Source: a bacterium (GTDB taxonomy: Bacteria; Patescibacteriota; Minisyncoccia; Phycocordibacterales; UBA9973). Taken from it: DNA of 64,000 bases. The stretch is from positions 91,807 through 155,806 of the forward strand of contig JAIXRY010000015.1 in the NCBI GenBank assembly GCA_027484965.1, given 5' to 3'. Shown piece after piece: positions 3,301 to 50,283 of this stretch. The translations under genes and the position numbers were made by a program. Within the stretch, counting starts at the first letter, position 1; every line of letters starts with the position of its first letter. The notes beneath the pieces are model-generated. The model did not search any database. It was not told where the DNA came from and worked only from the letters and a program-made list of their open reading frames with translations.

Positions 3301-3566
3301 TGATAGCGCTTATTATCTACTCCTGGTTCTTTGTCTCCTAGATTACGTACAGCCATATATGCTTCAACACCAATGATTGGTTTGATGCCTGCTTTAGTAC
3401 ATTCCATATAAAAATCAATAGCACCATACATTGCGCCGTGATCTGTTAGAGCGATTGCTTCCATCCCGTCTTCTTTTGCTTTTTCCACAAGGTCACTAAT
3501 CTTTGAAAGGCCATCCAAAAGTGAGTAGTGTGAGTGCGTGTGTAGGTGGGTGAATTTTTGGTCCAT
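372..3566 (-). CDS. dnaE: DNA polymerase III alpha subunit
   Basis: 1064 aa; N-terminal PHP motif HLHTHSHYSLLDG; polymerase core and C-terminal OB region. Confidence 0.9.
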   Translation of the reverse strand: MDQKFTHLHTHSHYSLLDGLSKISDLVEKAKEDGMEAIALTDHGAMYGAIDFYMECTKAGIKPIIGVEAYMAVRNLGDKEPGVDNKRYHLTLLAKNFEGYKNLMKLVTISQIDGYYYKPRMDKEILKTHSEGIICLSGCPSGELAKALFNRDLEKGREIVKSFIDIFEKENFFLEVMGHFEMEGYDKVVEDIKTLSKEFDLPIVGTWDAHYMHKEDWEAQETLVAINTGGDVQSNKMKMKGNYSFITSEEAKKAFENIPGAYENTKKVADMCNLELTLGKFVFPIFPLPPDVTPDMRLHELCVEGLTVRGLEDDEKAKERLEYELGIIAFKGYATYFLVVHDLIRYARENDIYYNIRGSVAGSMTTYTLGITKVNPLLYNIPFERFLNPERPSAPDIDMDFADNRRDEIIDYARHKYGEKKVAQIGTFGTMAARGSVRDVARALGYPYGVGDRISKMIPMGAQGFPMTIERALAEVPELKEMYDNDRETSIIIDMAKKIEGGARHISVHAAGVVIGPTDLTDYTPLQFDPKGGKLITQYDMYSVGEDGAGLTKFDFLGIRNLSILKDAVTLVDKIYNIKVDIDDIDLADERSFKMLARGETEGLFQLNGAGMTKWLKELRPSTIHDINAMVALYRPGPMQFIPDYIARKHNSALISYLDPALEDILKTTYGILVYQDDLLLMAHHLAGYSWGEVDKFRKAVGKKIPAEMQAQREKFIKGCVKTSGWSEKKATEIWSWIEPFAAYGFNKAHSASYGLVAYQTAFMKANFPVAYMCACMTAESGDVDQIAIYVHECERMKIKVLPPHINESFGVFTVIKEEDKTIEESRVIRFGLYTIKNLGTDIADAIIEERKKNGPFSSIGNFLDRITHKNLNRKSLESLIKAGAMDMFGERGLLLANSEALLEYNRAFAQKSDSQTSLFGLGGMSAPELRLRPTEPIDLKTRLAWEKDLLGLYISGHPLEAYKEKLAKCNSILSIKREGKKDAPIKVCGVVEEVKRITTKNNDYMLFVRITDLTGSIETILFPKNYKDFAPILIEDALIVIAGKVSLKNDEKSIIIEAVKNIE

Positions 3567-3635
3567 GTTTTTACATTATAACAATATTGCTGATATATAA
3601 AAATCTTTTTTAAATATTGATTTTTTAGGAATTTA

Positions 3636-4268
3636 TTGTTGTTTTGTTATACTGTGATAATGCAATATATTGTTGGTATTGATGAAGTAGGAAGGGGGCC
3701 TATTGCTGGTCCTGTGGCTGTGTGTGCTTTTTTGGTAAGCAATGATTTTCAAAAAGAAGTAGAAGAATTTTCTAAAAAAAATAAGCTCCCCATTCGTGAC
3801 TCAAAAAAACTCACCGAAAAAATGCGTGATAGATGGTATGAATTTTTAATTAAAAGTAAAAAAGAAGGGAAGTGTGATTTTTCTGTCTCTCTTGTGTCTG
3901 CAAGTGATATAGACTCGCATGGAATAGTTCCTGCAATCAAAAAGGCACTTACGACTTCTTTAAAAAAAGTCGCAATAGATACTTCTGTAAAGATTGTTTT
4001 GGATGGAGGGTTGAAAGCACCTAGTGAATATACAAATCAAGAAAGTTTTATAAAAGGGGATGAATTATATCCTGTAATCTCTCTTGCTTCAATTGTGGCA
4101 AAAGTTTCTCGAGATACGCTGATGAAAAAGTATGCCAAAGAATTCTCAGAATATGGATTTGATAATAATGCAGGCTATGGGACAAAAGCTCATTATGAAG
4201 CAATACAAAAATACGGCCTAACTACACTTCATAGGAAGACTTTTCTTAGAAAGATAAAAATAGTATAA
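3636..4268 (+). CDS. rnhB: ribonuclease HII
   Basis: Motif GIDEVGRGPIAGPV typical of RNase HII; the true start is probably the internal Met near 3660 (MQYIVGIDE). Confidence 0.85.
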   Translation: MLFCYTVIMQYIVGIDEVGRGPIAGPVAVCAFLVSNDFQKEVEEFSKKNKLPIRDSKKLTEKMRDRWYEFLIKSKKEGKCDFSVSLVSASDIDSHGIVPAIKKALTTSLKKVAIDTSVKIVLDGGLKAPSEYTNQESFIKGDELYPVISLASIVAKVSRDTLMKKYAKEFSEYGFDNNAGYGTKAHYEAIQKYGLTTLHRKTFLRKIKIV

Positions 4269-4276
4269 TATGTTTT

Positions 4277-4915
4277 ATGAAAAAAATAATTAGTTTCTTA
4301 ATAGTTTTTCTTGTTTCTGCAAATATTTCTTTTGCAAGTACTAATAATATTCCACAAACAATTTTTACTGACACAGTGACTACAGGTAAGCAAAAAAGTG
4401 TAATATTTAATGGACATATAGATACAAATACTGGCTACCTAGGTACAACTGTTGGTCCAAATTTCTATTTCGAATATGGTACTGATATTAATAAATATAC
4501 AAAGACTAATTCTCAGACAATCAATGAGGGTGTTGATGGAAAATTTTCTGCAACAGTTACAGGACTTAAAAAGAATACACTTTATTATTATAGATTTGTT
4601 CAAGAAACAGGAAGTACTATGAATTCAGAAATAATAAAAACTGGAGGAGAACTACGTATTTTTTATCTTACAAAAAGTAATAAGGTAGAAATACTCAATC
4701 TTTGTTCTATTACAAAAAATATTCGTTTTGGTTCTAAGGATAGTGGTCAAGTTTATTTGTTGCAAAAATTCCTTAATGAAGCAAACGTTCTCTCTGCTCG
4801 TCCTGATGGAAATTTTGGTCCAAAAACTCTTGTTGCATGGAAGAAATATCAAAAAGACAGTGGAATAAAAAAGATATCAGATCTGAATTTTTGCGGTCAG
4901 AATCATGGAATGTAA
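4277..4915 (+). CDS. secreted protein with FN3-like region and C-terminal peptidoglycan-binding-like domain
   Basis: N-terminal signal peptide (MKKIISFLIVFLVSANISFA); C-terminal segment LLQKFLNEANVLSARPDGNFGPKTLVAWKKYQ resembles PG_binding_1 domains. Confidence 0.5.
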   Translation: MKKIISFLIVFLVSANISFASTNNIPQTIFTDTVTTGKQKSVIFNGHIDTNTGYLGTTVGPNFYFEYGTDINKYTKTNSQTINEGVDGKFSATVTGLKKNTLYYYRFVQETGSTMNSEIIKTGGELRIFYLTKSNKVEILNLCSITKNIRFGSKDSGQVYLLQKFLNEANVLSARPDGNFGPKTLVAWKKYQKDSGIKKISDLNFCGQNHGM

Positions 4916-4932
4916 TTAAAATAATAAATAGA

Positions 4933-4961
4933 AAAAAACACCCTTAAAAGGGTGTTTTTTT
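4933..4961. terminator. bidirectional rho-independent terminator
   Basis: aaaaaacaccc-ttaaaa-gggtgttttttt hairpin flanked by A and T runs, between convergent genes. Confidence 0.6.
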
Positions 4962-5813
4962 CTATTTATTATTCAAATATATTTTATAATCAACTTCTTT
5001 TTTGCCTTCAGTGATAACTTTTTGTATTTCAATATTTTCTTCATCAAAAGACATTTCTGTAATTTTTACTCTTTTATTATTTTTATCAAAGTAGAATATT
5101 CCAGGCCATGGAGTGTAGGCGCGAAATTTGTTCCAAATTTCGCGCCCTTTGTCGCTCAGCTTTACTTCACCATTTTCCCTTTTGAGTTTGTGAGTGAACG
5201 TTGCCTCACTGTGATTCTGCTCTTTTCTTTCAGGGAAGTCTTTTGTTAGATTTGGAATAATATCTGCGAGTATTTCTCCACCACGAGTAAAGAGTGTTTT
5301 TGCTAATGTTTCACTATTGTCTTTGTCCTTTATCTCGTATGTTTCTTGATAGATAATCGGTCCATGATCTATGTCTTTGTCGAGTTCCATAATGCTTACA
5401 CCTGTTATTCTATCATTTGATAGAAAAGGGAATTCTATAGGACTTGGTCCGCGATATCTTGGTAGAAGGGAAGGGTGTACATTTATGGTGCCCAAACTAG
5501 ATAAATCAAGAAGTTTTTCTGGAAGAATTTTTCCATATGCTGCAACAACAAACAAATCGAAAAAAGTTTTTTTGATTTCTTCTATTGCTTCATCATTTAT
5601 TTTATTTGGCTGAAATACTTTAATATTGTTTTCTATTGCCCAAACTTTTGTCTGAGGAGGAGTCATTATCTGATGTCTTCCGACTTTTTTATCTGGAGAA
5701 CATACCACAAGTTCAGGTAATATGTTTTTTGATTTTAGAGAATCTAAAACATACACCGCTTCTTGAGGTGTACCGAAAAATACAAATTTTTTAGTGTTGA
5801 TGTTCTGGTTCAT
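4962..5813 (-). CDS. fmt: methionyl-tRNA formyltransferase
   Basis: Formyltransferase N- and C-domains; overlaps def start, the conserved def-fmt arrangement. Confidence 0.85.
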   Translation of the reverse strand: MNQNINTKKFVFFGTPQEAVYVLDSLKSKNILPELVVCSPDKKVGRHQIMTPPQTKVWAIENNIKVFQPNKINDEAIEEIKKTFFDLFVVAAYGKILPEKLLDLSSLGTINVHPSLLPRYRGPSPIEFPFLSNDRITGVSIMELDKDIDHGPIIYQETYEIKDKDNSETLAKTLFTRGGEILADIIPNLTKDFPERKEQNHSEATFTHKLKRENGEVKLSDKGREIWNKFRAYTPWPGIFYFDKNNKRVKITEMSFDEENIEIQKVITEGKKEVDYKIYLNNK

Positions 5814-23060: not shown

Positions 23061-23285
23061 TCGCTCGATAGTTAGTACAAAAAACCTTAATAAATAAAGT
23101 TTTAGGGGAGAGGGAGGACTTGAAACTTACAGTTTCAGTACACCTTTTGGATATTTTATTTCACTCTGTTCATAAAAGTATCTCAAAAGCTTTTCAAGTC
23201 CTACTCCTGTTTTTAGAAAAAAAACAGTTGCGTCTCCCAAGCAAAAAGTCCCTAAAAGGGACTTTTTTGTGCTGACAGGACTTTC

Positions 23286-23420
23286 CGACTACGTCGGCAG
23301 GTACTTTTCAATCTCGTAAACTCGATAATGAAAAGTCTTTCAAGTCCTCACGAAAAGTGTGCAGACATTTTTCTTCCCGAGCACAAAATAAAAAGCCTCA
23401 AAAATGAGGCTTTTTATTTT
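23286..23420. repeat. tRNA-associated palindromic repeat unit (copy 1, downstream of tRNA-Leu-TAG)
   Basis: cgac-tac-gtcg hairpin, ggtacttttcaat, ataatgaaaagtctttcaagtcc motif, gcag-loop hairpin, and inverted copy of the tRNA T-arm/acceptor (ttcaagtcctc...ttcccgagcac). Confidence 0.5.
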
Positions 23421-27264: not shown

Positions 27265-27329
27265 TATAAATTAAGTCTCAGTAGGGATCTTTCGTTACAC
27301 GAACAGTAGACCTTTTGCATTTATTTAAA

Positions 27330-27445
27330 TCATAGATTTTCATAAATAAGCAAAAGCTTTTCGATCCCTACACGCATATGAAGCAGTTCATATGCTTGAG
27401 GGGACAAAAAAACAAAAACACCAATTTGGTGTTTTTGTTTTTTTG
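27330..27445. repeat. tRNA-associated palindromic repeat unit (copy 2, downstream of tRNA-Lys)
   Basis: aaaagcttttcgatccctac + gcatatgaa-gcag-ttcatatgc hairpin + ttgaggggac(a)n ... tgtcccctca long palindrome ending inside the tRNA acceptor. Confidence 0.5.
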
Positions 27446-27518: not shown

Positions 27519-27628
27519 TCTTATATTATATTTTAAAACTTACTTTTACCCCACAATTCTTTTGTTGAAGCCACTACAGCTGAGTTATGAGGGGATTATA
27601 TTAAAAAAAATATGAAGGGGTCTCGCCT

Positions 27629-27727
27629 TAATGAAAAGTCTTTTGAAGCCCATCAAGGCAATAAGCTGGGCACCTGTGGACGGTCTTGGGCACAAAGTAA
27701 ATAAACCTAGAAGGTTTATTTACTTTG
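27629..27727. repeat. tRNA-associated palindromic repeat unit (copy 3, downstream of tRNA-Leu-TAA)
   Basis: aatgaaaagtcttttgaagccc motif then gcacaaagtaaataaacc-taga-aggtttatttactttgtgc hairpin running into the tRNA 3' end. Confidence 0.5.
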
Positions 27728-27809: not shown

Positions 27810-27871
27810 AAATTATTTATTTTTAAATTATAGCATAAAATTCAGGGACAGGAATTAAATGGCGGGAATCT

Positions 27872-28002
27872 CGACTTACAGTCGCGGGTACTTTTCAATT
27901 TTTTACTTCATAAAAAATAATGAAAAGTCTTTCGATTCCCGCACGCAAGCAAAGCAGTTTGCTTGCTCCACGTCTCAAGAAAACCCCTAATGGGTTTTCT
28001 TG
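27872..28002. repeat. tRNA-associated palindromic repeat unit (copy 4, downstream of tRNA-Cys)
   Basis: cgact-tac-agtcg hairpin, ggtacttttcaat, ataatgaaaagtctttcgattcccgc, gcaagcaaa-gcag-tttgcttgc hairpin, ccacgtctcaagaaaacccc-taat-ggggttttcttgagacgtgg. Confidence 0.5.
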
Positions 28003-42855: not shown

Positions 42856-43395
42856 ATGATTGATATTAAAGATAATCCTTCACTTGTTTCTTATTCAAAT
42901 ACAGTCACAGAAATAAAACCAGAAACTTTAGAAAAGGTTAAGTATTCTAAATTTGGATTAGTTTTGGATATATTGTTAGAATCATTATGGATTTTTGCTA
43001 TTTTATTTGTTTTTACATATCTTAAAATAAACAAAGAAACCCTTGGTGGTTTCGGTGGAATAATGGTTTTATATTTTGTAATGTTTTTTGTTGTTGTTTC
43101 TGTGTTTTTTGGAGTTTTTGGTTTTTTTACATCTGAAAAGATAATAATAAAATTAAAAAATAATAACGAAAAAATACCAAAACTTTTAAAATTTCAACAT
43201 ATTTTATCTTCTTTGATTTTTTATTCAACTTTATCTTTAATGGTTTCTTTAATAGTATTATTACCCTTATCTTTTATTAAAGATATTAGAAATATTTCTG
43301 AAGTTTATGGAAGAATTATATTTGCTATACCTTTTATTTTGTCACTGTACATTTTTCTGAAGCATCATTTTAGAGAGATTTTTAAACAAAATTAA
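42856..43395 (+). CDS. multi-pass membrane protein, hypothetical
   Basis: 179 aa, four or more hydrophobic helices; followed by a terminator at 43394-43430. Confidence 0.4.
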   Translation: MIDIKDNPSLVSYSNTVTEIKPETLEKVKYSKFGLVLDILLESLWIFAILFVFTYLKINKETLGGFGGIMVLYFVMFFVVVSVFFGVFGFFTSEKIIIKLKNNNEKIPKLLKFQHILSSLIFYSTLSLMVSLIVLLPLSFIKDIRNISEVYGRIIFAIPFILSLYIFLKHHFREIFKQN

Positions 43396-43443
43396 AGAGC
43401 GGTGCCGTATGGCGCCGCTCTTTATTTTTCTAAATCCTTTAAA

Positions 43444-43767
43444 CTATTGTTTCGGAGGAAGTGTAGTGTCTGTATTTTCTGGTGATACCACTGGTTGTTC
43501 CATTTGAATATTTTTCATCATTCCATCTTTGTTCCATTGTCCTTTTTCCATTTTTTGCATCTTCATCATTTTTCCACGCATATCATTTCCACGCATTTCG
43601 TGACGGAAACTTTTCACCATTCCAACTTGTACACCAAGCCAGAAAATAAAAAGAACGAAAATAATTTTTATAATACTTTTTCCAAAATGACAGTGCATCA
43701 TCTTAGAATTCTTCATCCATGTGCAACCTTTGCAGTCGCATGTATTTGTTTGTTCTTTTTGTTCCAT
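43444..43767 (-). CDS. small membrane protein with Cys/His cluster and Met-rich tail (possible metal binding)
   Basis: CDCKGC...HCH near the N-terminus; MRGNDMRGKMMKMQKMEKGQWNKDGMMKNIQM Met-rich region resembling Cu(I) Met-motifs. Confidence 0.4.
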   Translation of the reverse strand: MEQKEQTNTCDCKGCTWMKNSKMMHCHFGKSIIKIIFVLFIFWLGVQVGMVKSFRHEMRGNDMRGKMMKMQKMEKGQWNKDGMMKNIQMEQPVVSPENTDTTLPPKQ

Positions 43768-43863
43768 ATATATAAATTAACGTTATTAAATGGCTTTTAT
43801 GTGCCTTACTATATTATACGCTAAAGTATGGTATTTTATTTCAAATAGTTACTTTATTTTTCT

Positions 43864-44898
43864 ATGTGTTACACTTTGTATATGAATGGTTCAAAAATAA
43901 TCGAGAAATACTTCTTCTTTTTCCTTCTCCTTGTCACGGCGTCTTTTGTGGGGATGATACTTTTCCCATTTTTTAGGGTTATTGTGATTGGAATATCTAT
44001 TTCAGTCGTTCTCTATCCTTTGTATTTATGGATAGAAAAATACACCTCAAAAAAACACAACTGGATTCCTTCGTTACTAACAACCTTAATTTTTCTTGTA
44101 GGTCTTTGTATTCCTCTCTATATACTAGGCTCAACACTATTCAATCAATTTCAAAGCTTTTATTATTCTCTTAATACAACGAGCGCTCAATCAATTCTAA
44201 CAACAGTAGGGAACTCTCTGAATAATTTTCTTCCAAATGGGATAGCTTTTGATGTTCAAAAAGAAATTAGCACTATTACTTCTTCTTTTTCAAGTAATAT
44301 ACAAGGTATATTTTCTGCAACAGCCAAGACTGTCTTAATGTTCGTAATATTTTTACTTATCATATTCTATTTCCTTAAAGAGGGAAGTTCCTGGAAGAAG
44401 AAATATATACAAATGAGTCCACTGAATGAAAAACACAATGAAAAAGTTCTAAGTACTCTATCAAATACAATCAATGGCACCATAAAAGGGTACCTGATTA
44501 TTTCAGTGGTTCAAGGATTACTTATGGGTGTAGGGCTTGCAATATTTGGTGTACCTCACGCCGTGCTTTGGGCTTTTGTGACTAGCATTGCTTCTCTTAT
44601 TCCAACTATTGGTACAGCTTTAGTATCAGTACCAATTATTCTTTATTTATTCAGTATAGGTGAAACAGGAAATGCTGTAGGGCTCGCTGTCTGGTCAGCA
44701 ACTTTCGTGGGTACAATAGACAATTTCTTGAGTCCTTATATTGTGAGCAAACAAATAAAGATTTCTCCGCTCTTTATACTCCTTTCAGTTCTTGGAGGTA
44801 TTACACTTATGGGTCCTGTTGGAATAATTATAGGACCACTTGCAATAAGTCTTTTAAATGAACTTATTATTATATATAGAGAGGATAGTATTGAGTAG
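43864..44898 (+). CDS. AI-2E family (UPF0118/PerM-like) transporter
   Basis: 344 aa, about 8 TMs, ASLIPTIGTALVSVPIILYL motif. Confidence 0.55.
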   Translation: MCYTLYMNGSKIIEKYFFFFLLLVTASFVGMILFPFFRVIVIGISISVVLYPLYLWIEKYTSKKHNWIPSLLTTLIFLVGLCIPLYILGSTLFNQFQSFYYSLNTTSAQSILTTVGNSLNNFLPNGIAFDVQKEISTITSSFSSNIQGIFSATAKTVLMFVIFLLIIFYFLKEGSSWKKKYIQMSPLNEKHNEKVLSTLSNTINGTIKGYLIISVVQGLLMGVGLAIFGVPHAVLWAFVTSIASLIPTIGTALVSVPIILYLFSIGETGNAVGLAVWSATFVGTIDNFLSPYIVSKQIKISPLFILLSVLGGITLMGPVGIIIGPLAISLLNELIIIYREDSIE

Positions 44899-44903
44899 TA
44901 ATT

Positions 44904-45524
44904 TTATAGAATTATATTCTCTATTTCCGCTAATACTTTGAATTCAGCTTCTGTTTCTGGGGTTTTGTCAAAGTGCATAGGGATAACTTGTCCTATAGAT
45001 TTGAATTGTTTTACGAAATCAATCGCTTCTTGTGGTCCGAATGTATAGTGTCCTCCGACAGGAATAAGAGCTATATCTACTTCAAGTGTGCTTACATCTA
45101 TTCCAGATGAGTAGAACATATCACCGGCAAAGTATATTTTTTCTCCATCGAATTCTATAAGAAATCCAAAGTTTTCTTTTGGCCTTACTGTTGCATTTGG
45201 TCCATGATCAACATCAAAAAATAAGACTTTGAAATCTGGTGTTTCTAATAGGTCTCCAACCTTCACTTCTTCAACATCAAAAAACACAGCTTCTTCGGCA
45301 AGTAAATCAATACATTCTTTATTCAAATATAATTTGAGAGGGGAAAGTGCTTTTATGTGTTCAGCAGAGAAGTGGTCTCCGTGAATATGTGATACTAACA
45401 TTGCGTCCACTGACAATTTCTCTAGTTTTTCTAGTGGAGTAAATCCGGCAATATCTATCGCTATTTTATAGCCACTTGTGGATTCAAGTATGAACCCAGA
45501 TTGTTCAAATTTTTGTATCTTCAT
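44904..45524 (-). CDS. MBL-fold metallo-hydrolase
   Basis: LVSHIHGDHF (HxHxDH) motif. Confidence 0.7.
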   Translation of the reverse strand: MKIQKFEQSGFILESTSGYKIAIDIAGFTPLEKLEKLSVDAMLVSHIHGDHFSAEHIKALSPLKLYLNKECIDLLAEEAVFFDVEEVKVGDLLETPDFKVLFFDVDHGPNATVRPKENFGFLIEFDGEKIYFAGDMFYSSGIDVSTLEVDIALIPVGGHYTFGPQEAIDFVKQFKSIGQVIPMHFDKTPETEAEFKVLAEIENIIL

Positions 45525-45770
45525 ACTGAGATTATATCATATTGAGTTTTTTTCGAAATTCTTGTATTATAGTGGAGTTACGTTAAAAATATTGGAAATG
45601 TCTGAATTTGAGTTTTTAAAGAACAATTTATTGTTGCTTTAAAAAGCTCAAATTCACTTCGCGGATTGCCGTCTTTGGGCAACCAAGAAGCGAATGGTAG
45701 GAATAAAAAGTAATCTTCTTTACTTTTTATCTGATCCAAAGGAATTTCTTTTAATTCTTATGTTTATTGC

Positions 45771-45841
45771 TGGGGAATCGTCTAATGGTAGGACTTCGGA
45801 TTTTGGTTCCGACTATCTAGGTTCGAGTCCTAGTTCCCCAG
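45771..45841 (+). tRNA. tRNA-Gln (anticodon TTG)
   Basis: U1-A72 acceptor TGGGGAA/TTCCCCA, D-loop TAATGGTAG, anticodon stem TCGGA/TCCGA with loop TTTTGGT, T-arm CTAGG-TTCGAGT-CCTAG. Confidence 0.75.
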
Positions 45842-45866
45842 CTATATACGGAAGAATTAAGAAATA

Positions 45867-45961
45867 GGGGATTTTGGTTCCGTTTATCTAGGCGCCTATT
45901 TTTAAAGAACTGAGTGATTATAAAAATAGTGCGTTTCGAAGAGGCGAGTCCTAGTTCCCCA
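45867..45961 (+). pseudogene. tRNA-Gln 3'-fragment copy interrupted by a ~50-nt palindromic insertion
   Basis: ggggattttggttccgtttatctagg + [cgc-ctattttta...tataaaaatag-tgcg tttcgaagag] + gcgagtcctagttcccca mirrors the anticodon-to-3' part of the adjacent tRNA-Gln but lacks the 5' half. Confidence 0.35.
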
Positions 45962-46118
45962 ACCAATAAGAGTTAGAACAAATACGTCTAGTCGATTGAT
46001 AGATAAAAGCTTTCCACAAAATAGGTATTTATTTGTATTACGCACCGGGATATAATGTAACTTATATGAAAAAGTGTTTTATAATAGATAAATTAACGAT
46101 TACATTTGCACTCCTCTC

Positions 46119-46442
46119 ATGGTTTGTACCTTTATTTGTCAGTTTTTTTTAGTAGATCCAGAAACAAAAGTAACCATTATTAATCCAATACTTTTTAAAG
46201 TATTGATGATTGTAATTGTTACTATCATAACTTTTTATGGTTATAGTAAAATAAATACAAAAACTGGTATAAGTATTCAGACGTCTAATACTTTTTTGGC
46301 TCTTAATTTTTTACTAGACATTGTAGTTCTAATAGTGTTGTTTAGTGTTCCTTTTATGGTATGGGCTACAACCATACTACCTGTATATATACTAGTGTTT
46401 TACGGAGTGTGCTTTATCATTAAAGGACATGGTATTCAGTAG
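46119..46442 (+). CDS. small membrane protein, hypothetical
   Basis: 107 aa, three TM helices; contains a T8 tract at 46143-46150. Confidence 0.35.
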   Translation: MVCTFICQFFLVDPETKVTIINPILFKVLMIVIVTIITFYGYSKINTKTGISIQTSNTFLALNFLLDIVVLIVLFSVPFMVWATTILPVYILVFYGVCFIIKGHGIQ

Positions 46443-46815
46443 TTTTAATCCACCGTTTACAAATAAAACTCTAGAGGACTTTTTTGAATTTTATACAAAA
46501 CATACTAATGACGCTAATACTCTTAGAGACTGGATTTTAGATACTTACCCAGATTTAGATATAGGTCTTTCCTATCACGTTCCTTTTTTCTATATAAACA
46601 AAAAGAAGTTATTTTACTTATACTATTTCAAAAATGAAGACGAAGAACTTGCTCTTGAAATCAGTTTTATTAAAGGTGTAAATATAAAAGATAAATATGT
46701 TTTGTTTCAAGAAAAAAACAAAGAGACTAAGTCTATAATTATTACAAATGTATCTGCGCCATTTTTGGATAAACTAAGGTATTACATAGATACTGTAATT
46801 GAACAAAATATTTAA
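46429..46815 (+). CDS. DUF1801/YdhG-like protein, putative
   Basis: About 128 aa; LRDWILDTYPDLDIGLSYHVPFFYINKKKLFYLYYFKN pattern resembles YdhG family. Confidence 0.4.
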   Translation: MVFSSFNPPFTNKTLEDFFEFYTKHTNDANTLRDWILDTYPDLDIGLSYHVPFFYINKKKLFYLYYFKNEDEELALEISFIKGVNIKDKYVLFQEKNKETKSIIITNVSAPFLDKLRYYIDTVIEQNI

Positions 46816-47085
46816 TATATACTCTCAAGTACCGTCGAAAGTGAAGGCATCAACGACAGCCTTACAGAGCTTGACCAACCACGATTCTAGCTCAAGTACT
46901 CCAGCAATACTATATAAAAACACCCGCGATAAAGTGGGTGTTTTTATATAGTATATTGTTGCTGTGTGGACTCGAACTGTGGGTCGCAATCCTCGTCGAG
47001 AGGATGAAGGTCTCGAACTCAGCATAGTGAGAGAAGAGTCCTAGTTTCTCAGTATTATGTAAAAAATTATTCAAGAGTTAAAAAA

Positions 47086-47119
47086 TAAAAAAGTCTCCAT
47101 TATTAATGGAGACTTAAAA
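47086..47119 (-). terminator. rho-independent terminator for the 47120-47629 gene
   Basis: aaaaaagtctccat-tatta-atggagactt; the T-run is on the minus strand. Confidence 0.5.
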
Positions 47120-47629
47120 TTATTGTACTTGATGTGGAACTATATTTAATAGCGTGTCAAGCGGTTGTTTTAAAAGTTTGTGCAAATCTTTGATTATTTC
47201 TTTGCAATTTTTTCCTTTAATGGAGATAGAACGTGCTTCCATTATTTCTCTATCTTTACCTGAAAATATGTCAGCAGCTATAATCTGAACTTTACCACCT
47301 TTTTTAAGTACAGCTCTCATATATCCTCCATTTAAATGTTCTCGTTTAATTGTAAAAATAAAATCTTGAAAAACTATTGTAATCTCAAGTCTCAATACAC
47401 CCCAAAGTGTTTTCCTCTTTTTCTCTGAAGTAGGGTTATGACATCCTGTTCCATGAATATTGTAATTTTCTAGCCTATTTAATTTCCCAGGTCTGTTTTC
47501 ATAAAAAATTAAAGAAGTAAGTAGTGTTGCAATAACAATATCATTTTCAGAAGGCTCTTCTTTCTCTAATAAAGATTGAAGGTTTTTAATTTGGTCAGGA
47601 CTGTCCCGATTTTTAAAATCTATTTTCAT
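47120..47629 (-). CDS. orphan hypothetical protein
   Basis: 169 aa soluble protein, sole minus-strand gene in an AT-rich island-like stretch. Confidence 0.4.
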   Translation of the reverse strand: MKIDFKNRDSPDQIKNLQSLLEKEEPSENDIVIATLLTSLIFYENRPGKLNRLENYNIHGTGCHNPTSEKKRKTLWGVLRLEITIVFQDFIFTIKREHLNGGYMRAVLKKGGKVQIIAADIFSGKDREIMEARSISIKGKNCKEIIKDLHKLLKQPLDTLLNIVPHQVQ

Positions 47630-48012
47630 ATTATTTAATTTTTTAATTTACTTTATAATATAGTATTTTTTTTAATCTGTCAATATATACTATATGTATA
47701 GATTGTATAGTTTAATTTTCTTTCAACAGGTATTTCAAAATCAGAAATTTTTCCATGTTAAAATTATTAAGAACAACAAATTAATAAGTAAATGAGAAAA
47801 ATAAAATATTATAGTAAAATTTTTTTCTGAATATTTTTATTTATGTTTATTTTTAAACAAAATAAAATTATGCCTAATCCTAAAATGAGGAGGGGAAGAA
47901 AAGTAGAAAGAATTCACTCATAAAGCCGCAAGTATGCGGCTTTTATAATTACTTGCTTTTTTGTCTTAATGTGTTAAAATTGTATCGAAACCTTTAAAAA
48001 TATTTTATTATT

Positions 48013-48219
48013 ATGAAAAAGTTCTTTTTATTATTGATTGTTTTTATGTTGTTTGTTCCTGGGTCATACGCTCAGACAGGTCCAGGTGAGGATGACCTTG
48101 AAGAAACAGGAGATGATGTGCCTATATCAGGAGTTGAATTTCTTGTTCTTTCAGCTGTTGCTTTTGGATTTTATTCTGTAAACAAAAAACAAAAAGAATT
48201 GAAAAGCATTACTGCTTAA
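48013..48219 (+). CDS. small exported peptide with C-terminal TM anchor and basic tail
   Basis: Signal peptide, acidic stretch, VPISGVEFLVLSAVAFGFYSV-NKKQKELK; terminator immediately downstream. Confidence 0.35.
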   Translation: MKKFFLLLIVFMLFVPGSYAQTGPGEDDLEETGDDVPISGVEFLVLSAVAFGFYSVNKKQKELKSITA

Positions 48220-48225
48220 TTACTA

Positions 48226-48257
48226 AAAAGCCGCGTTAGACGCGGCTTTAATTTTTC
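48226..48257. terminator. bidirectional terminator
   Basis: aaaaagccgcg-ttaga-cgcggctttaattttt. Confidence 0.6.
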
Positions 48258-48260
48258 TAA

Positions 48261-48758
48261 TTAATGAACGTGTTTTTTCTTTTTCCAAAAATGATAGAAG
48301 ACACACCCTAGTATTCCACTTATCACTACCGCTTCTATTGGTTCATGTGTGTTTTCTGGAATTTCTAATCCGACAGCTTTTGAAATTATAAATATTCCAA
48401 CCAAAAGAATTCCTGTTAGAATTATTGTCTTTTTTGGGTTCTTTGTATGGGTTAAGCTCTCTTCATAAAGAAAGACTATATCCATTCCAATGTGGAGGAT
48501 TCCAAATAGATAATCTTGTAATTTGTAAGTTTCTAAATATATTCCATGAGTTATCATGTCTATTCCCATATGTATCATTAATAAGAAAAGGGCTACTCTC
48601 CCGTGATATGAGTGTGATATAAGTGCAAGAAGAAGACCTGCAATAAGTCCTATTATTACAAGCGGATTTAAAAAAGGTAACTCTATTGCGTGGAATATTA
48701 AAACACCCGCATATATTACAAGGAAAGCTTTAAAAAATTTGTGATGATGATGTTTCAT
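48261..48758 (-). CDS. His-rich multi-pass membrane protein (possible metal transporter)
   Basis: MKHHHHK start; His residues within predicted TMs (HSYHG, HMGIDMITHG, HIGMD); divergent from a Fur-family regulator. Confidence 0.45.
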   Translation of the reverse strand: MKHHHHKFFKAFLVIYAGVLIFHAIELPFLNPLVIIGLIAGLLLALISHSYHGRVALFLLMIHMGIDMITHGIYLETYKLQDYLFGILHIGMDIVFLYEESLTHTKNPKKTIILTGILLVGIFIISKAVGLEIPENTHEPIEAVVISGILGCVFYHFWKKKKHVH

Positions 48759-48784
48759 ATTTATTTTTTTTATTCATTCTACTC

Positions 48785-48807
48785 TATTTGCAAGTGGCTT
48801 GCAAATA
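48785..48807. promoter_or_regulatory. perfect 10-3-10 palindrome, candidate Fur-family operator
   Basis: tatttgcaag-tgg-cttgcaaata in the divergent promoter region between the His-rich membrane gene and the Fur-family regulator. Confidence 0.4.
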
Positions 48808-49164
48808 AGGTACCATAAAATACATATGAAGACTAACAAATGTAAACAAAATATATTGTCTGTATTGTCTCAAAATCACTTACTTAGTATTAAAGATATG
48901 CAAAAGAAGTTGGGTAATAATGATTTCTCTACCATTTTTAGGAATGTTCTAAATCTCGAAAAAGAAGGATATATAAAGAAAGTAATTATAGAAAAAGATG
49001 TTACTATGTATGAGCTTGTATCTCATAATCACAATCATTTTATCTGTAATAAATGTAAAAAAATTGAAGAAATATTTTTATCTGGTTTTTCAGGGTTCAT
49101 TTCTAAAGATTTTAATGTTCAAGATATTACAGTCAGGGGACTTTGTAATGGGTGTAATAAATAA
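48799..49164 (+). CDS. Fur-family transcriptional regulator (Fur/Zur/PerR-like)
   Basis: N-terminal winged helix, HNHFICNKC...CNGCN metal-binding Cys motifs; the true start is probably 48826 (MKTNKCKQ), which places the palindrome upstream. Confidence 0.7.
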   Translation: MQIRYHKIHMKTNKCKQNILSVLSQNHLLSIKDMQKKLGNNDFSTIFRNVLNLEKEGYIKKVIIEKDVTMYELVSHNHNHFICNKCKKIEEIFLSGFSGFISKDFNVQDITVRGLCNGCNK

Positions 49165-49179
49165 TATAATCTATCTTAC

Positions 49180-50283
49180 ATGAATATTTTTAATAAAGTA
49201 ATTGGTTTATTTTTTCTTTTGATTTTTATTCCTCAAATATCTTTTGCTTTAGAAAAAAATGAAATTCAAAGAGCTAGAGTTTTAGAGATTGTAAATGAAC
49301 AAAAAACAACAGTATTTGGAAGTAATAGTGATTTTACTGAACAAGAATTAAATATAGAGATAATTTCTGGTTCTGAAAAGGGGAAAAAAGTTATTATCTA
49401 CAATGATTATATAAATCTCAAAAAGGGAGATAAGATATTTATTGATAGACATATAGATACAGGAGAAACATTTTATAAAATTTTAGAAAAAGATCGAAGA
49501 TTAAACCTCTTTTTGTTTGTTGTATTTTTTATTGCAATGATACTTTTTTTTGGAAAAAAACAAGGATTAAGATCTCTCTTGTCTTTATTTGGAAGTATTT
49601 TATTGATAGCTTATATTTTATTACCTCTTATATTAAAAGGTTATAATCCTCTTTTTGTTAGTATCGGTATCTCGTCTCTAATTTTATTTTTTGCTATATA
49701 TTTTACCCATGGTTTTAAAAAGACTTCGACAATAGCATTTTTAGGAACTTTAATCGCTGTCTGTTTTACTAGTATTCTTTCTTATATTGCGAGTATTACT
49801 TTGGGATTTTCAGGTTTTGGAAGTGAAGAAGCTACTTTTCTAAGTCTAAAAGCTGATTCGTATATTGATTTTTCAGGACTTCTTTTAGGTGGGATTATAA
49901 TTGGAGTTCTCGGTGTTTTAGATGATATTGCTATTACTCAAGTCGCAATAGTTCGTGAGTTGTATAGTGTTGGTAATATATCAAAAAAAGAAATATACAA
50001 GAAAGCAATTTCTGTTGGTCAGGAGCATGTTGGTGCTTTAGTAAATACTTTAGCACTTGCATATACTGGAGCATCTCTACCTCTATTACTACTTTTGTCT
50101 ATGTCTGACGCTCCTTTGTCAGTTATTATTAGTCAAGAAAAATTTTCTGTAGAGATTATAAGGACTATTGTTGGTAGTGTTGGACTTGTGTTGACCGTAC
50201 CTATAACTACATTTTTAGCTGTTTATTTTGTAAAAAAAGAAGACAAATTGGAGAGCGTATGTAATCACAAGCACTTTCATTAA
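49180..50283 (+). CDS. multi-pass membrane protein (YibE/F-like?)
   Basis: 367 aa, N-terminal signal plus extracellular domain then about 7 TMs. Confidence 0.4.
   Translation: MNIFNKVIGLFFLLIFIPQISFALEKNEIQRARVLEIVNEQKTTVFGSNSDFTEQELNIEIISGSEKGKKVIIYNDYINLKKGDKIFIDRHIDTGETFYKILEKDRRLNLFLFVVFFIAMILFFGKKQGLRSLLSLFGSILLIAYILLPLILKGYNPLFVSIGISSLILFFAIYFTHGFKKTSTIAFLGTLIAVCFTSILSYIASITLGFSGFGSEEATFLSLKADSYIDFSGLLLGGIIIGVLGVLDDIAITQVAIVRELYSVGNISKKEIYKKAISVGQEHVGALVNTLALAYTGASLPLLLLLSMSDAPLSVIISQEKFSVEIIRTIVGSVGLVLTVPITTFLAVYFVKKEDKLESVCNHKHFH

Follow-up and report, generated by a model that had tools for sequence, protein, structure and literature searches.

The window analysed here is a stretch of 64,000 nt from contig JAIXRY010000015.1 of the assembly GCA_027484965.1, and at 45.59–47.05 kb it contains a 'nested' tRNA-Gln locus, i.e. 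a working tRNA-Gln gene lying between partial copies of tRNA-Gln. Comparison with other genomes shows that the split copy downstream of the gene, the leader upstream of it and the predicted helix, or stalk, on which it sits are conserved, structured modules and not debris, that by alignment the locus differs by around 1.3 kb from that of the nearest relative, apparently within one transcription frame, and that the pieces derive from different tRNA-Gln alleles. Most likely, the conserved stalk and hairpins act in the RNA. Our preferred reading, to which we would grant somewhat less than an even chance, is that a cassette carrying its own tRNA-Gln was put into the resident gene together with structured RNA flanks. 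The locus had been noticed in an initial annotation made from the letters of the sequence, and both what was observed there and how it was interpreted are partly borne out by the present analysis.

With a G+C content of around 34 % and a gene set taking in FtsQ, Dus, DnaX, SerRS and an AI-2E permease, the host was placed in the Candidate Phyla Radiation (CPR)/Paceibacteria by gene set and by protein relatives, which bear the labels Paceibacterota or Parcubacteria. The locus is present in three Logan contigs at ≥99.9 % identity, and the tRNA-Gln structure is therefore not an assembly accident of one sample. For comparison, a tRNA-Gln pattern scan with one genome per species gave 34 loci, mostly from CPR, and the neighbourhood set comprised 135 open reading frames (ORFs) lying up to 4.5 kb from tRNA-Gln in 27 CPR loci (L004 to L037). 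A search by DnaX relatives added two useful loci (L052 and L053), while MBL-fold neighbours were discarded as a synteny anchor, their homologues of about 69 % identity not adjoining tRNA-Gln. The nearest genome is that of Candidatus Paceibacterota CTOTU14240 (locus L016), with 80–92 % nucleotide identity in the flanking DNA; loci L017 and L047 (JBBSBF010000001.1) belong to Candidatus Paceibacteria La6_metabat2.104. Local similarities were evaluated by Smith–Waterman alignment against 2000 shuffles. In 16 of the 27 CPR loci dnaX, encoding DNA polymerase III gamma/tau, is the conserved immediate upstream neighbour of tRNA-Gln; four extra genes (42856–45524) stand between the two in the window.

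The intact tRNA-Gln(TTG) at the centre of the locus was recovered by ARAGORN and Rfam exactly where the initial annotation had put it (Table 1). Its allele, 'tB', is marked by the pair T27–A43 (CCGACTAT), and the gene is 98.6 % identical to that of L036, 97.2 % to that of L006 and 90.8 % to that of the nearest relative L016.

The downstream copy begins 27 nt past this gene and consists, in this order, of GGGGA, the anticodon arm, the 5' strand of the T-stem, a 52-nt hairpin insert, the remainder of the T-loop, the 3' strand of the T-stem and the 3' strand of the acceptor stem. Its first block, GGATTTTGGTTCCGTTTATCTAGG (45869–45892), agrees with tRNA bases 28–51 at 22 of 24 positions and the second, CGAGTCCTAGTTCCCCA (45945–45961), with bases 54–70 at 17 of 17; between the blocks, where the tRNA has two nucleotides (TT), there are 52, with a hairpin at approximately 45891–45935, and the T-loop bases T54 and T55 are missing from the copy. 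The initial annotation had described an anticodon-to-3' copy with a T-loop split by a hairpin, and this description stands. It had also looked to a formal alignment and to tRNA prediction: the similarity was reached in 0 of 2000 shuffles, and no second, intron-bearing tRNA was called. ARAGORN, with or without an intron and under normal or pseudogene settings, did not call the downstream copy a tRNA, and neither did Rfam in E-value mode. Relaxed, intron, tmRNA and mitochondrial modes of ARAGORN over 45400–47300 returned low-stringency artefacts only, and the Rfam E-value mode, applied to the region and to the trailer of L049, returned only hairpin look-alikes (miRNA and leader families).

The allele of the downstream module is not that of the gene beside it. 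With A27–T43 (CCGTTTAT) it matches the allele of L016, L012 and L017 at 24 of 24 positions and the resident one at 22 of 24, and this allele is widespread among the 34 loci scanned. In addition, the sequences 3' of tRNA-Gln and 3' of its copy are unrelated. Taken together, the other allele and the unrelated 3' flanks exclude a simple tandem duplication. The same split module is found in La6_metabat2.104, where it follows tRNA-Gln after a 21-nt spacer and recurs 1.35 kb downstream, the hairpin of this second copy being disrupted. Between the window and L047 the insert is identical at 44 of 52 positions, with an unrelated spacer and with DnaX proteins that are 50.7 % identical. The base of the hairpin shifts from GGCGC/GCGTT to GGTCC/GGATC, i.e. 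by two compensatory pairs, as seen in two genomes only, and G-U pairs in the module stem are found on the tRNA strand alone. The predicted fold is a rod closed by GGGGA/UCCCC, with a minimum free energy (MFE) of −31.1 kcal/mol on the tRNA strand vs −22.2 kcal/mol on the opposite strand. What had been taken for a 50-nt interruption of a tRNA copy is thus, as judged by these comparisons, a conserved part of a module of around 100 nt and not a chance interruption.

On both sides of the intact gene, leader and trailer form an inverted repeat (45751–45777 and 45834–45860; 27 nt, 85 %) that had escaped the initial annotation. Considering the 20 positions flanking the tRNA, 17 are paired in the window, and 13–17 in the six nested loci described below vs 3–12 in the 28 plain ones. 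Since the stalk sequences are unrelated across the nested loci, the helix itself is what is kept.

Further upstream, the leader module is made up of a D-arm-like segment AATGGTAGGAAT, a first hairpin (45703–45730) and the string ATCTGAT-CCAAAGG-AATTTCT. An upstream D-arm fragment had been reported at about 45697–45718; the shared 10-mer AATGGTAGGA does exist, and it is the sole other copy in the window, but it lies at 45693–45702 (context 45687–45708) and alone is not significant (302 of 2000 shuffles of the 177-nt upstream stretch). The match becomes convincing because homologous leaders exist in other genomes. Over five aligned loci, 94.5 % of the positions in the stem of hairpin 1 are paired and 5 of its 11 pairs are compensatory, a result reached in 0 of 500 shuffles; in slid controls the paired share did not exceed 60 %.

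Two more pieces lie in front of the leader. L016 carries the same promoter-like sequence 24 nt 5' of its tRNA-Gln, and its positions 1327–1412 align with 45520–45603 of the window at 88 %, running into the start of the tRNA. The degenerate 5' end at 45594, which the initial annotation missed, therefore occupies the exact place where the L016 tRNA starts past the common promoter. It is interrupted by a window-specific palindrome, which had been recognised before, with its arms at 45603–45620 and 45639–45656 and not at 45619–45670; this and the D-arm match thus lie 10–16 nt away from where they had first been placed. A 12-mer, TTTTTAAAGAAC, is common to this palindrome (45613–45624) and to the module hairpin (45899–45910), these being its only exact copies in the 64 kb.

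The tRNA-Gln loci compared here occur in two forms. In the plain form, seen in 28 of 34 CPR loci, a promoter ending in ..AATAT adjoins tRNA-Gln. The nested form is found in six loci (the window, L047, L034, L025, L020 and L052), where a tRNA-Gln 5' piece, i.e. the acceptor strand and a D-arm variant (..GTGGGAAT), takes the position of the plain-form tRNA and the intact tRNA follows between a mutually pairing leader and trailer, with a 3' piece thereafter in most loci (in L034 none was found within approximately 170 nt of tRNA-Gln). Hairpin 1 has a stem of around 10–11 bp, its loop being CUGC in four of five aligned loci and UCUUCU in the window; a second short hairpin, identified by eye, has a GAA loop in L047, L034, L025 and L020 and AAA in the window. 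When the whole unit was folded, L025 (z −8.2) and L047 (z −6.5) gave an outer helix together with hairpins and a cloverleaf-bearing stalk, and the window gave three separate domains with no outer helix (z −8.1). The outer strands of L025, TGCCAGA/TCTGGCA, are a matched pair unlike the inner TGCCGGA/TCCGGCA, which fits either selection on the outer helix or the halves of a former functional allele. The layout of the pieces varies, the module following the tRNA in the window and L047 and an anticodon-like piece preceding it in L025 and L020; L020 also has, at 2240–2400, a two- to three-fold tandem of a promoter-like box plus tRNA-Gln 5' piece (TGCCGGATCGTTGAAGTGGTGGAAT..) upstream of its nested tRNA-Gln. 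Hairpins in the D-loop region of the 5' pieces are present in the window, L004 and L024, GC-rich in the latter two and AT-rich in the former. Overall, the 5' pieces extend to approximately position 25, and the module picks up at around 27–29, so that they make up roughly complementary halves.

The comparison with L016 delimits the extra DNA. There, tRNA-Gln comes straight after the promoter, and behind it lie a long hairpin and a GC-richer element; the window carries around 1.3 kb more between the common promoter stretch, which ends at 45593, and the common terminator hairpin, which starts at 46905. Of the 45.5–48.0 kb segment whose absence from relatives was to be checked, L016 lacks 45604–46900 and shares 46905–47052. 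Between the degenerate tRNA 5' end with which it begins and the CTCCAGC with which it ends, the extra segment holds the palindrome and leader, then the intact tRNA, and behind this the module with two ORFs; read as an insert bounded by attL and attR, its left boundary would be the tRNA 3' end. On the right, L016 1467–1613 aligns with 46901–47047, the junction CCAGC/AATACT matching L016. The first of the two cargo ORFs (46119–46442; 107 aa) is hydrophobic by eye and matched no Pfam or PHROG family, and the second (46429–46815; 128 aa) has a weak DUF1801 match. The hairpin at 46905–46958 is the only terminator-like site on the plus strand between the promoter and 47.2 kb.

The GC-richer element behind it holds GGACTCGAAC, an antisense T-loop, and ends in a tRNA 3'-end copy, GAGTCCTAGTTTCTCAG (47036–47052), also missed before. 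This copy fits the L016 allele at 16 of 17 positions (11 of 2000 shuffles), better than it fits the resident tRNA; it was considered as a scar of the insertion and rejected, its trailer element being present in L016 as well. The locus thus contains pieces of three tRNA-Gln alleles: those at 45594 and 47036 fit the L016 allele, the module is 'tA' and the resident gene 'tB'.

Table 1. Features of the tRNA-Gln locus and related elements; positions refer to the window unless a locus is named.
Feature	Position	Strand	Basis or remark
Promoter-like site TTGAGT-17-TATTAT	45542–45570	+	Consensus scan; common to L016
Degenerate tRNA-Gln 5' end TGGAAATGTCTGAAT (vs TGGGAAATCGTCTAAT in L016)	45594–45608	+	L016 alignment
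Palindrome/hairpin	45603–45656	+	18-nt arms, 89 %
Leader module	45693–45750	+	Homologous to tRNA-Gln leaders of L025, L020, L047 and L034
Stalk, 5' strand (leader)	45751–45770	+	Pairs with trailer 45842–45861, lengthening the acceptor stem
Intact tRNA-Gln(UUG), allele 'tB'	45771–45841 (or 45842)	+	ARAGORN; Rfam tRNA, 60.6 bits
Stalk, 3' strand (trailer) GCTATATACGGAAGAATTAA	45842–45861	+	Pairs with leader
Split 3' module 'type A', allele 'tA'	45866–45961	+	Alignment to tRNA-Gln, fold, L047 homology
Two overlapping cargo ORFs	46119–46815	+	In segment absent from L016
Right junction, poorly conserved tRNA-3'-end-like stretch ending CTCCAGC	46880–46904	+	L016 alignment
Long hairpin, terminator-like in both directions, kept in L016	46905–46958	+	Terminator scan, alignment
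GC-richer trailer element, also in L016	46958–47052	+	Alignment
Type C element	27858–27976	-	Directly 3' of tRNA-Cys
Type C element	27275–27405	-	Directly 3' of tRNA-Lys
Type C element	23269–23384	-	Directly 3' of tRNA-Leu(TAG), first of two in tandem
Type C element	23105–23242	-	Directly 3' of tRNA-Leu(TAG), second of two in tandem
tRNA-Gln trailer variant (..GGACTCGAACAGCGGAGTC..GAGCTGG..GTCGAGG..)	L012 254–405	-	
tRNA-Gln trailer variant	L049 2566–2724	-	
tRNA-Gln trailer variant	L053 4100–4245	+	
GIY-YIG ORF	L024 4785–5048		Nuclease domain
GIY-YIG ORF	L052 2857–3123		Nuclease domain
GIY-YIG ORF	L006 1830–2105	-	Nuclease domain
GIY-YIG ORF	L036 5954–6229		Nuclease domain

Beyond the trailer, the gene content at 47050–50280 also differs from that of L016, making this a flexible region beside tRNA-Gln: where the window has a 169-aa ORF (47120–47629), L016 has around 3.6 kb of other DNA, and a shorter segment stands there in place of the Fur and YibE/F genes (48799–50283). 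An apparent 22-bp duplication flanking an L016-specific insert of 1.16 kb turned out to be a BLAST overlap and not a repeat.

Structured elements are not confined to tRNA-Gln. Directly behind tRNA-Cys, tRNA-Lys and tRNA-Leu(TAG), the window contains elements ('type C') that are all built alike. A long hairpin takes in the 3' end of the tRNA itself; a hairpin with a CUGC loop comes next (the loop differs in the second tRNA-Leu element); and a helix made of the T-stem sequence of the same tRNA encloses an AT-rich hairpin plus a small UGUAA-loop hairpin (GUA in place of this loop in the first tRNA-Leu element). Their RNAalifold consensus has 17 pairs, 11 of them compensatory. The type C covariance model matches the four elements of the window and one in L036, matches more weakly after tRNA-Gln in L049 and L053, and gave nothing convincing elsewhere in 307 kb (two weak matches, E around 0.5). 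Since it misses the tRNA-Gln module and the 46958–47052 element, these were not filed as one family with it; the 46958–47052 element does bear a likeness to the 'type C' trailers found in L012, L049 and L053. The ends of these trailer variants match the acceptor strands of their own tRNA-Gln, i.e. TGGGGAA/TTCCCCA in L012 and GCCCGA/TCGGGCA in L049, and the 3' end of the L053 variant repeats 20 nt of the 3' end of its tRNA. A hammerhead-like CUGANGA seen by eye in the L012 and L049 trailers was dropped, the rest of the core being missing. Across the window and 11 related loci, Rfam 15 gave tRNA matches only, and no family for the module, the leader or type C.

At tRNA-Lys, 18 nt of the tRNA 5' end are repeated exactly at 27577–27594 on the minus strand, 59 nt upstream of the intact gene and after a promoter-like AT box of its own, so that the region 27520–27640 repeats the layout of 5' piece and then gene seen at tRNA-Gln. 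The assertion that tRNA loci of this genome have been remodelled recurrently is well founded in view of the L016 indel, this tRNA-Lys piece and the elements after tRNA-Cys, -Lys and -Leu(TAG), and the pattern looks systematic rather than accidental. In L036, a gene for a 733-aa reverse transcriptase (RVT_1; 3512–5795, minus strand) starts right after the type C element downstream of tRNA-Gln; this may be a retron-like or defence reverse transcriptase using the tRNA hotspot or that RNA.

How could such a locus have arisen? The scenario we tentatively favour is that a cassette with its own tRNA-Gln, structured flanks and two cargo ORFs would have entered the resident tRNA-Gln transcription unit by insertion or recombination, in one or more recombination events that would have left the ends of earlier tRNA-Gln copies behind as pieces. 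The inner tRNA would then be cut from a long transcript running from the promoter-like site to the terminator-like hairpin, the stalk possibly serving as a processing helix, e.g. for RNase III, before RNase P and RNase Z act. We count the L016 indel, the three alleles, the conservation of module and leader, the stalk, the nested folds and the matched outer strands of L025, as well as the GIY-YIG ORFs and the cassette array described next, in favour of this scenario. As to what might move the DNA, small GIY-YIG ORFs (around 87–91 aa) lie within approximately 100 nt of tRNA-Gln in L024, L052, L006 and L036, the only four such cases among 1521 ORFs scanned. In L024, the ORF has the intact tRNA-Gln on one side and, on the other, a 5' pseudo-piece whose D-loop hairpin is GC-rich, and L006 and L036 carry the tRNA-Gln allele of the window. 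It is tempting to speculate, as a lead only, that these nucleases are the best candidates for the mover, in the manner of free-standing homing endonucleases; the window itself has no GIY-YIG gene by phmmer and tblastn. Downstream of tRNA-Gln in L017 (640–4110), at least seven small cassettes (MaoC-like, histidine phosphatase and unknowns) are separated by a 27-nt repeat, GTTCYAAYATCGTCCCACAGCGCCAGC, which looks like a tRNA-Gln 3' end whose T-loop carries 5 inserted nucleotides.

Several observations weigh against a cassette. No recombinase or nuclease gene was found in or beside the insert of the window by Pfam, PHROGs and tblastn, and the known module copies amount to three, from two genomes. 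Exact-pattern scans of IMG/VR and JGI metagenomes gave no further copy (the two JGI pattern matches were both due to chance, and all 12 matches of a 19-mer scan of IMG/VR fell within one prophage coding sequence); likewise, blastn against phage records gave no match. The repeat at the right junction (46872–46904) resembles the tRNA at 15 of 24 positions, which was equalled in 270 of 2000 shuffles and is not significant, and the module lies only 27 nt from the tRNA, too close to be an attR carried off to the distant end of an element. The outer 5' piece of the window, TGGAAAT, is unable to pair with the 3' strand TTCCCCA of the module, so that the outer helix of L025 and L047 is not preserved here. 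The indel may also have run in the other direction, with recombination between the repeats removing the structure from L016. Finally, covariation and conservation fit a functional, vertically inherited RNA equally well.

The last point leads to the strongest alternative, namely that the pieces are the inherited, functional leader and trailer of a tRNA-Gln precursor, forming a tRNA-mimicking scaffold made up of an outer acceptor helix, a D-arm and an expanded T-arm, which would control or aid maturation of the inner tRNA, with no mobile DNA involved and the structure lost in L016. It would explain the covariation as well as a cassette does, i.e. the covarying leader hairpin, a stalk kept in six loci with unrelated sequences, and a non-tRNA part of the module kept at 85 % across DnaX proteins of 50.7 % identity. 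The G-U pairs and lower MFE on the tRNA strand, the single promoter–terminator frame, the compensatory outer acceptor pair of L025 and the analogous elements behind tRNA-Cys, -Lys and -Leu, which match their tRNAs and have compensatory changes in 11 of 17 pairs, all point the same way. However, an inherited RNA does not readily account for three tRNA-Gln alleles in one locus, for an outer helix that is broken in the window, or for cargo ORFs within the unit. Moreover, the pieces vary between genomes in how many there are, in what order and where, as in the L020 triplication and the L017 module duplicate 1.35 kb away, whose hairpin is disrupted, and 28 of 34 CPR tRNA-Gln loci do without the structure. 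We regard this explanation as unlikely on balance, and as a serious contender all the same.

A classical genomic islet, in which one or more integrase-bearing elements entered the 3' part of tRNA-Gln and then decayed to att-type scars, we consider improbable. Partial tRNA copies at insertions, with older ones pushed downstream, are a known signature, reported for tycheposons (bioRxiv 10.1101/2020.12.28.424599) and for prokaryotic tRNA fragments (PMC9897764), and the indel relative to L016 as well as the L017 cassette array with its 27-nt tRNA-3'-end-like repeats would be in line with it. Nevertheless, no integrase was found in the insert or among the 17 window ORFs tested, the searches by Pfam and PHROGs covering the insert ORFs, their neighbours and ten further ORFs, nor in the 20-kb context of L047, and in the 27 CPR loci none of the integrase families had matches in two or more of the 135 ORFs around tRNA-Gln. 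The position of the module next to the tRNA and not at the far end of the insert, together with the non-significant right junction, speaks against it as well. Integration at a 3' end does not make 5' pieces upstream, and a trailer that is complementary to the leader cannot have come in as one arm of an unrelated element. Integration of elements carrying tRNA fragments, one of two causes put forward in the initial annotation, is therefore not supported in this classical sense, given the missing integrase and the right junction.

Local debris is a still less probable explanation, and one that the observed conservation contradicts. It would consist of tandem or fold-back (template-switch) duplications of the tRNA and its terminator, followed by decay and with incidental palindromes. 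Template switching could generate the long perfect inverted repeats that include the tRNA 3' end behind tRNA-Cys, -Lys and -Leu, and such duplications would fit the tandem of promoter and 5' piece in L020. Duplications of this kind do not account for a module whose allele differs from that of the adjoining gene and whose flanks are unrelated to those of the tRNA, for the conservation and covariation of insert and leader hairpin across very distant genomes, or for the loop motifs CUGC and UGUAA being kept while the stems vary.

Very improbable, too, is the other cause put forward initially, a tRNA-targeting miniature element, i.e. a palindrome resembling a miniature inverted-repeat transposable element (MITE) that would insert into tRNA loops and leave its copies as the D-loop and T-loop hairpins. 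Hairpins do occur in the D-loop region of the 5' pieces (window, L004 and L024) and in the T-loop of the 3' pieces, and the two hairpins of the window have a 12-mer in common; but there are no further copies and hence no repeated hairpin family in the 64 kb, no terminal repeats or target duplications were seen, and between genomes the hairpins share structure and not sequence, with stems that covary, unlike MITE copies.

That the downstream copy, or the outer pieces together, make up a second functional tRNA-Gln, intron-bearing or split, is hardly credible: the pieces do form roughly complementary halves and group I introns are common in CPR tRNAs, but the published ones sit in the anticodon loop of tRNA-Asn and tRNA-Asp (PMC13011429), the 52-nt insert is far too small for such an intron and has no group I match, the T-loop lacks T54 and T55, the outer 5' strand of the window has degenerated, and no credible call came from Rfam or from ARAGORN run with its intron and pseudogene options.

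A broader proposition, which we hold to be less likely than not and yet to stand a real chance, is that Paceibacteria harbour undescribed structured elements that match their tRNAs, i.e. a 'tRNA-in-tRNA' scaffold at tRNA-Gln and a T-loop-expanded 'shadow' after tRNA-Cys, -Lys and -Leu, representing either a new route of tRNA processing or regulation or a self-propagating cassette that destroys the resident tRNA gene. If the latter were true, the host would be left dependent on the tRNA copy brought in. Few bacterial loci are as conserved and as well understood as tRNA genes, and partial tRNA copies beside them are usually read as integrase scars; here, the copies are conserved modules with covarying helices, an integrase was not found nearby, and the functional tRNA sits in a long helix within a broken copy of its own sequence. 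Should the modules act in the RNA, they would point to an unknown step of tRNA maturation in bacteria with a minimal RNA-processing machinery. Should they be the footprint of a tRNA-replacing cassette, they would represent a new selfish strategy and a route of gene flow in CPR genomes, which to our knowledge lack most known mobile elements. In either case, such pieces confuse tRNA annotation and the calling of island boundaries in CPR metagenome-assembled genomes.

Seen against known systems, the locus is a variation on the theme of partial tRNA copies at tRNA hotspots. With islets of the tycheposon type it shares the hotspot, partial copies beside cargo and a presence that differs from a relative, and the L017 locus shares with them arrays of small cassettes split by tRNA-3'-end-like repeats. 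Unlike in such islets, an integrase was not found, both 5' and 3' pieces exist, the copy lies 27 nt away, the hairpin expansions have covarying stems, and the tRNA is enclosed by a complementary leader and trailer.

In archaea, interrupted, split and permuted tRNA genes are processed by a splicing endonuclease at bulge-helix-bulge motifs to give one functional tRNA; we know of no bacteria with this archaeal enzyme. The interruption at non-canonical sites (the D-loop, around position 26 and the T-loop) and the complementary flanks around the mature part are reminiscent of these genes, whereas here the intact tRNA lies inside and the outer copy is degenerate. RNAs that mimic tRNAs, such as the bacterial Y RNA YrlA, tmRNA and viral tRNA-like structures, keep a part resembling the acceptor and T-arm joined to structured modules. 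The present elements differ in that they have no Rfam match and stand in cis beside the cognate tRNA gene, whose stems they match.

Closer in phylogeny are the self-splicing group I introns of Patescibacteria, which are a few hundred nucleotides long and sit at position 35/36 of tRNA-Asn and tRNA-Asp (PMC13011429). These come from the same phylum and likewise interrupt tRNA genes by structured RNA that annotation tools miss; the inserts described here differ from them in being T-loop hairpins of 52–65 nt in a partial copy, without a group I match. With regard to a possible mover, SegB of phage T4 is a free-standing GIY-YIG homing endonuclease that drives the preferential inheritance of a linked tRNA region (PMC2330249). 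It acts between co-infecting phages, whereas the CPR proteins are predicted catalytic domains of around 87 aa and the window lacks such a gene; nevertheless, a small GIY-YIG gene beside a tRNA is what both have in common, with such an ORF next to tRNA-Gln in four relatives, and an activity of this kind would explain the replacement of one tRNA-Gln allele by another.

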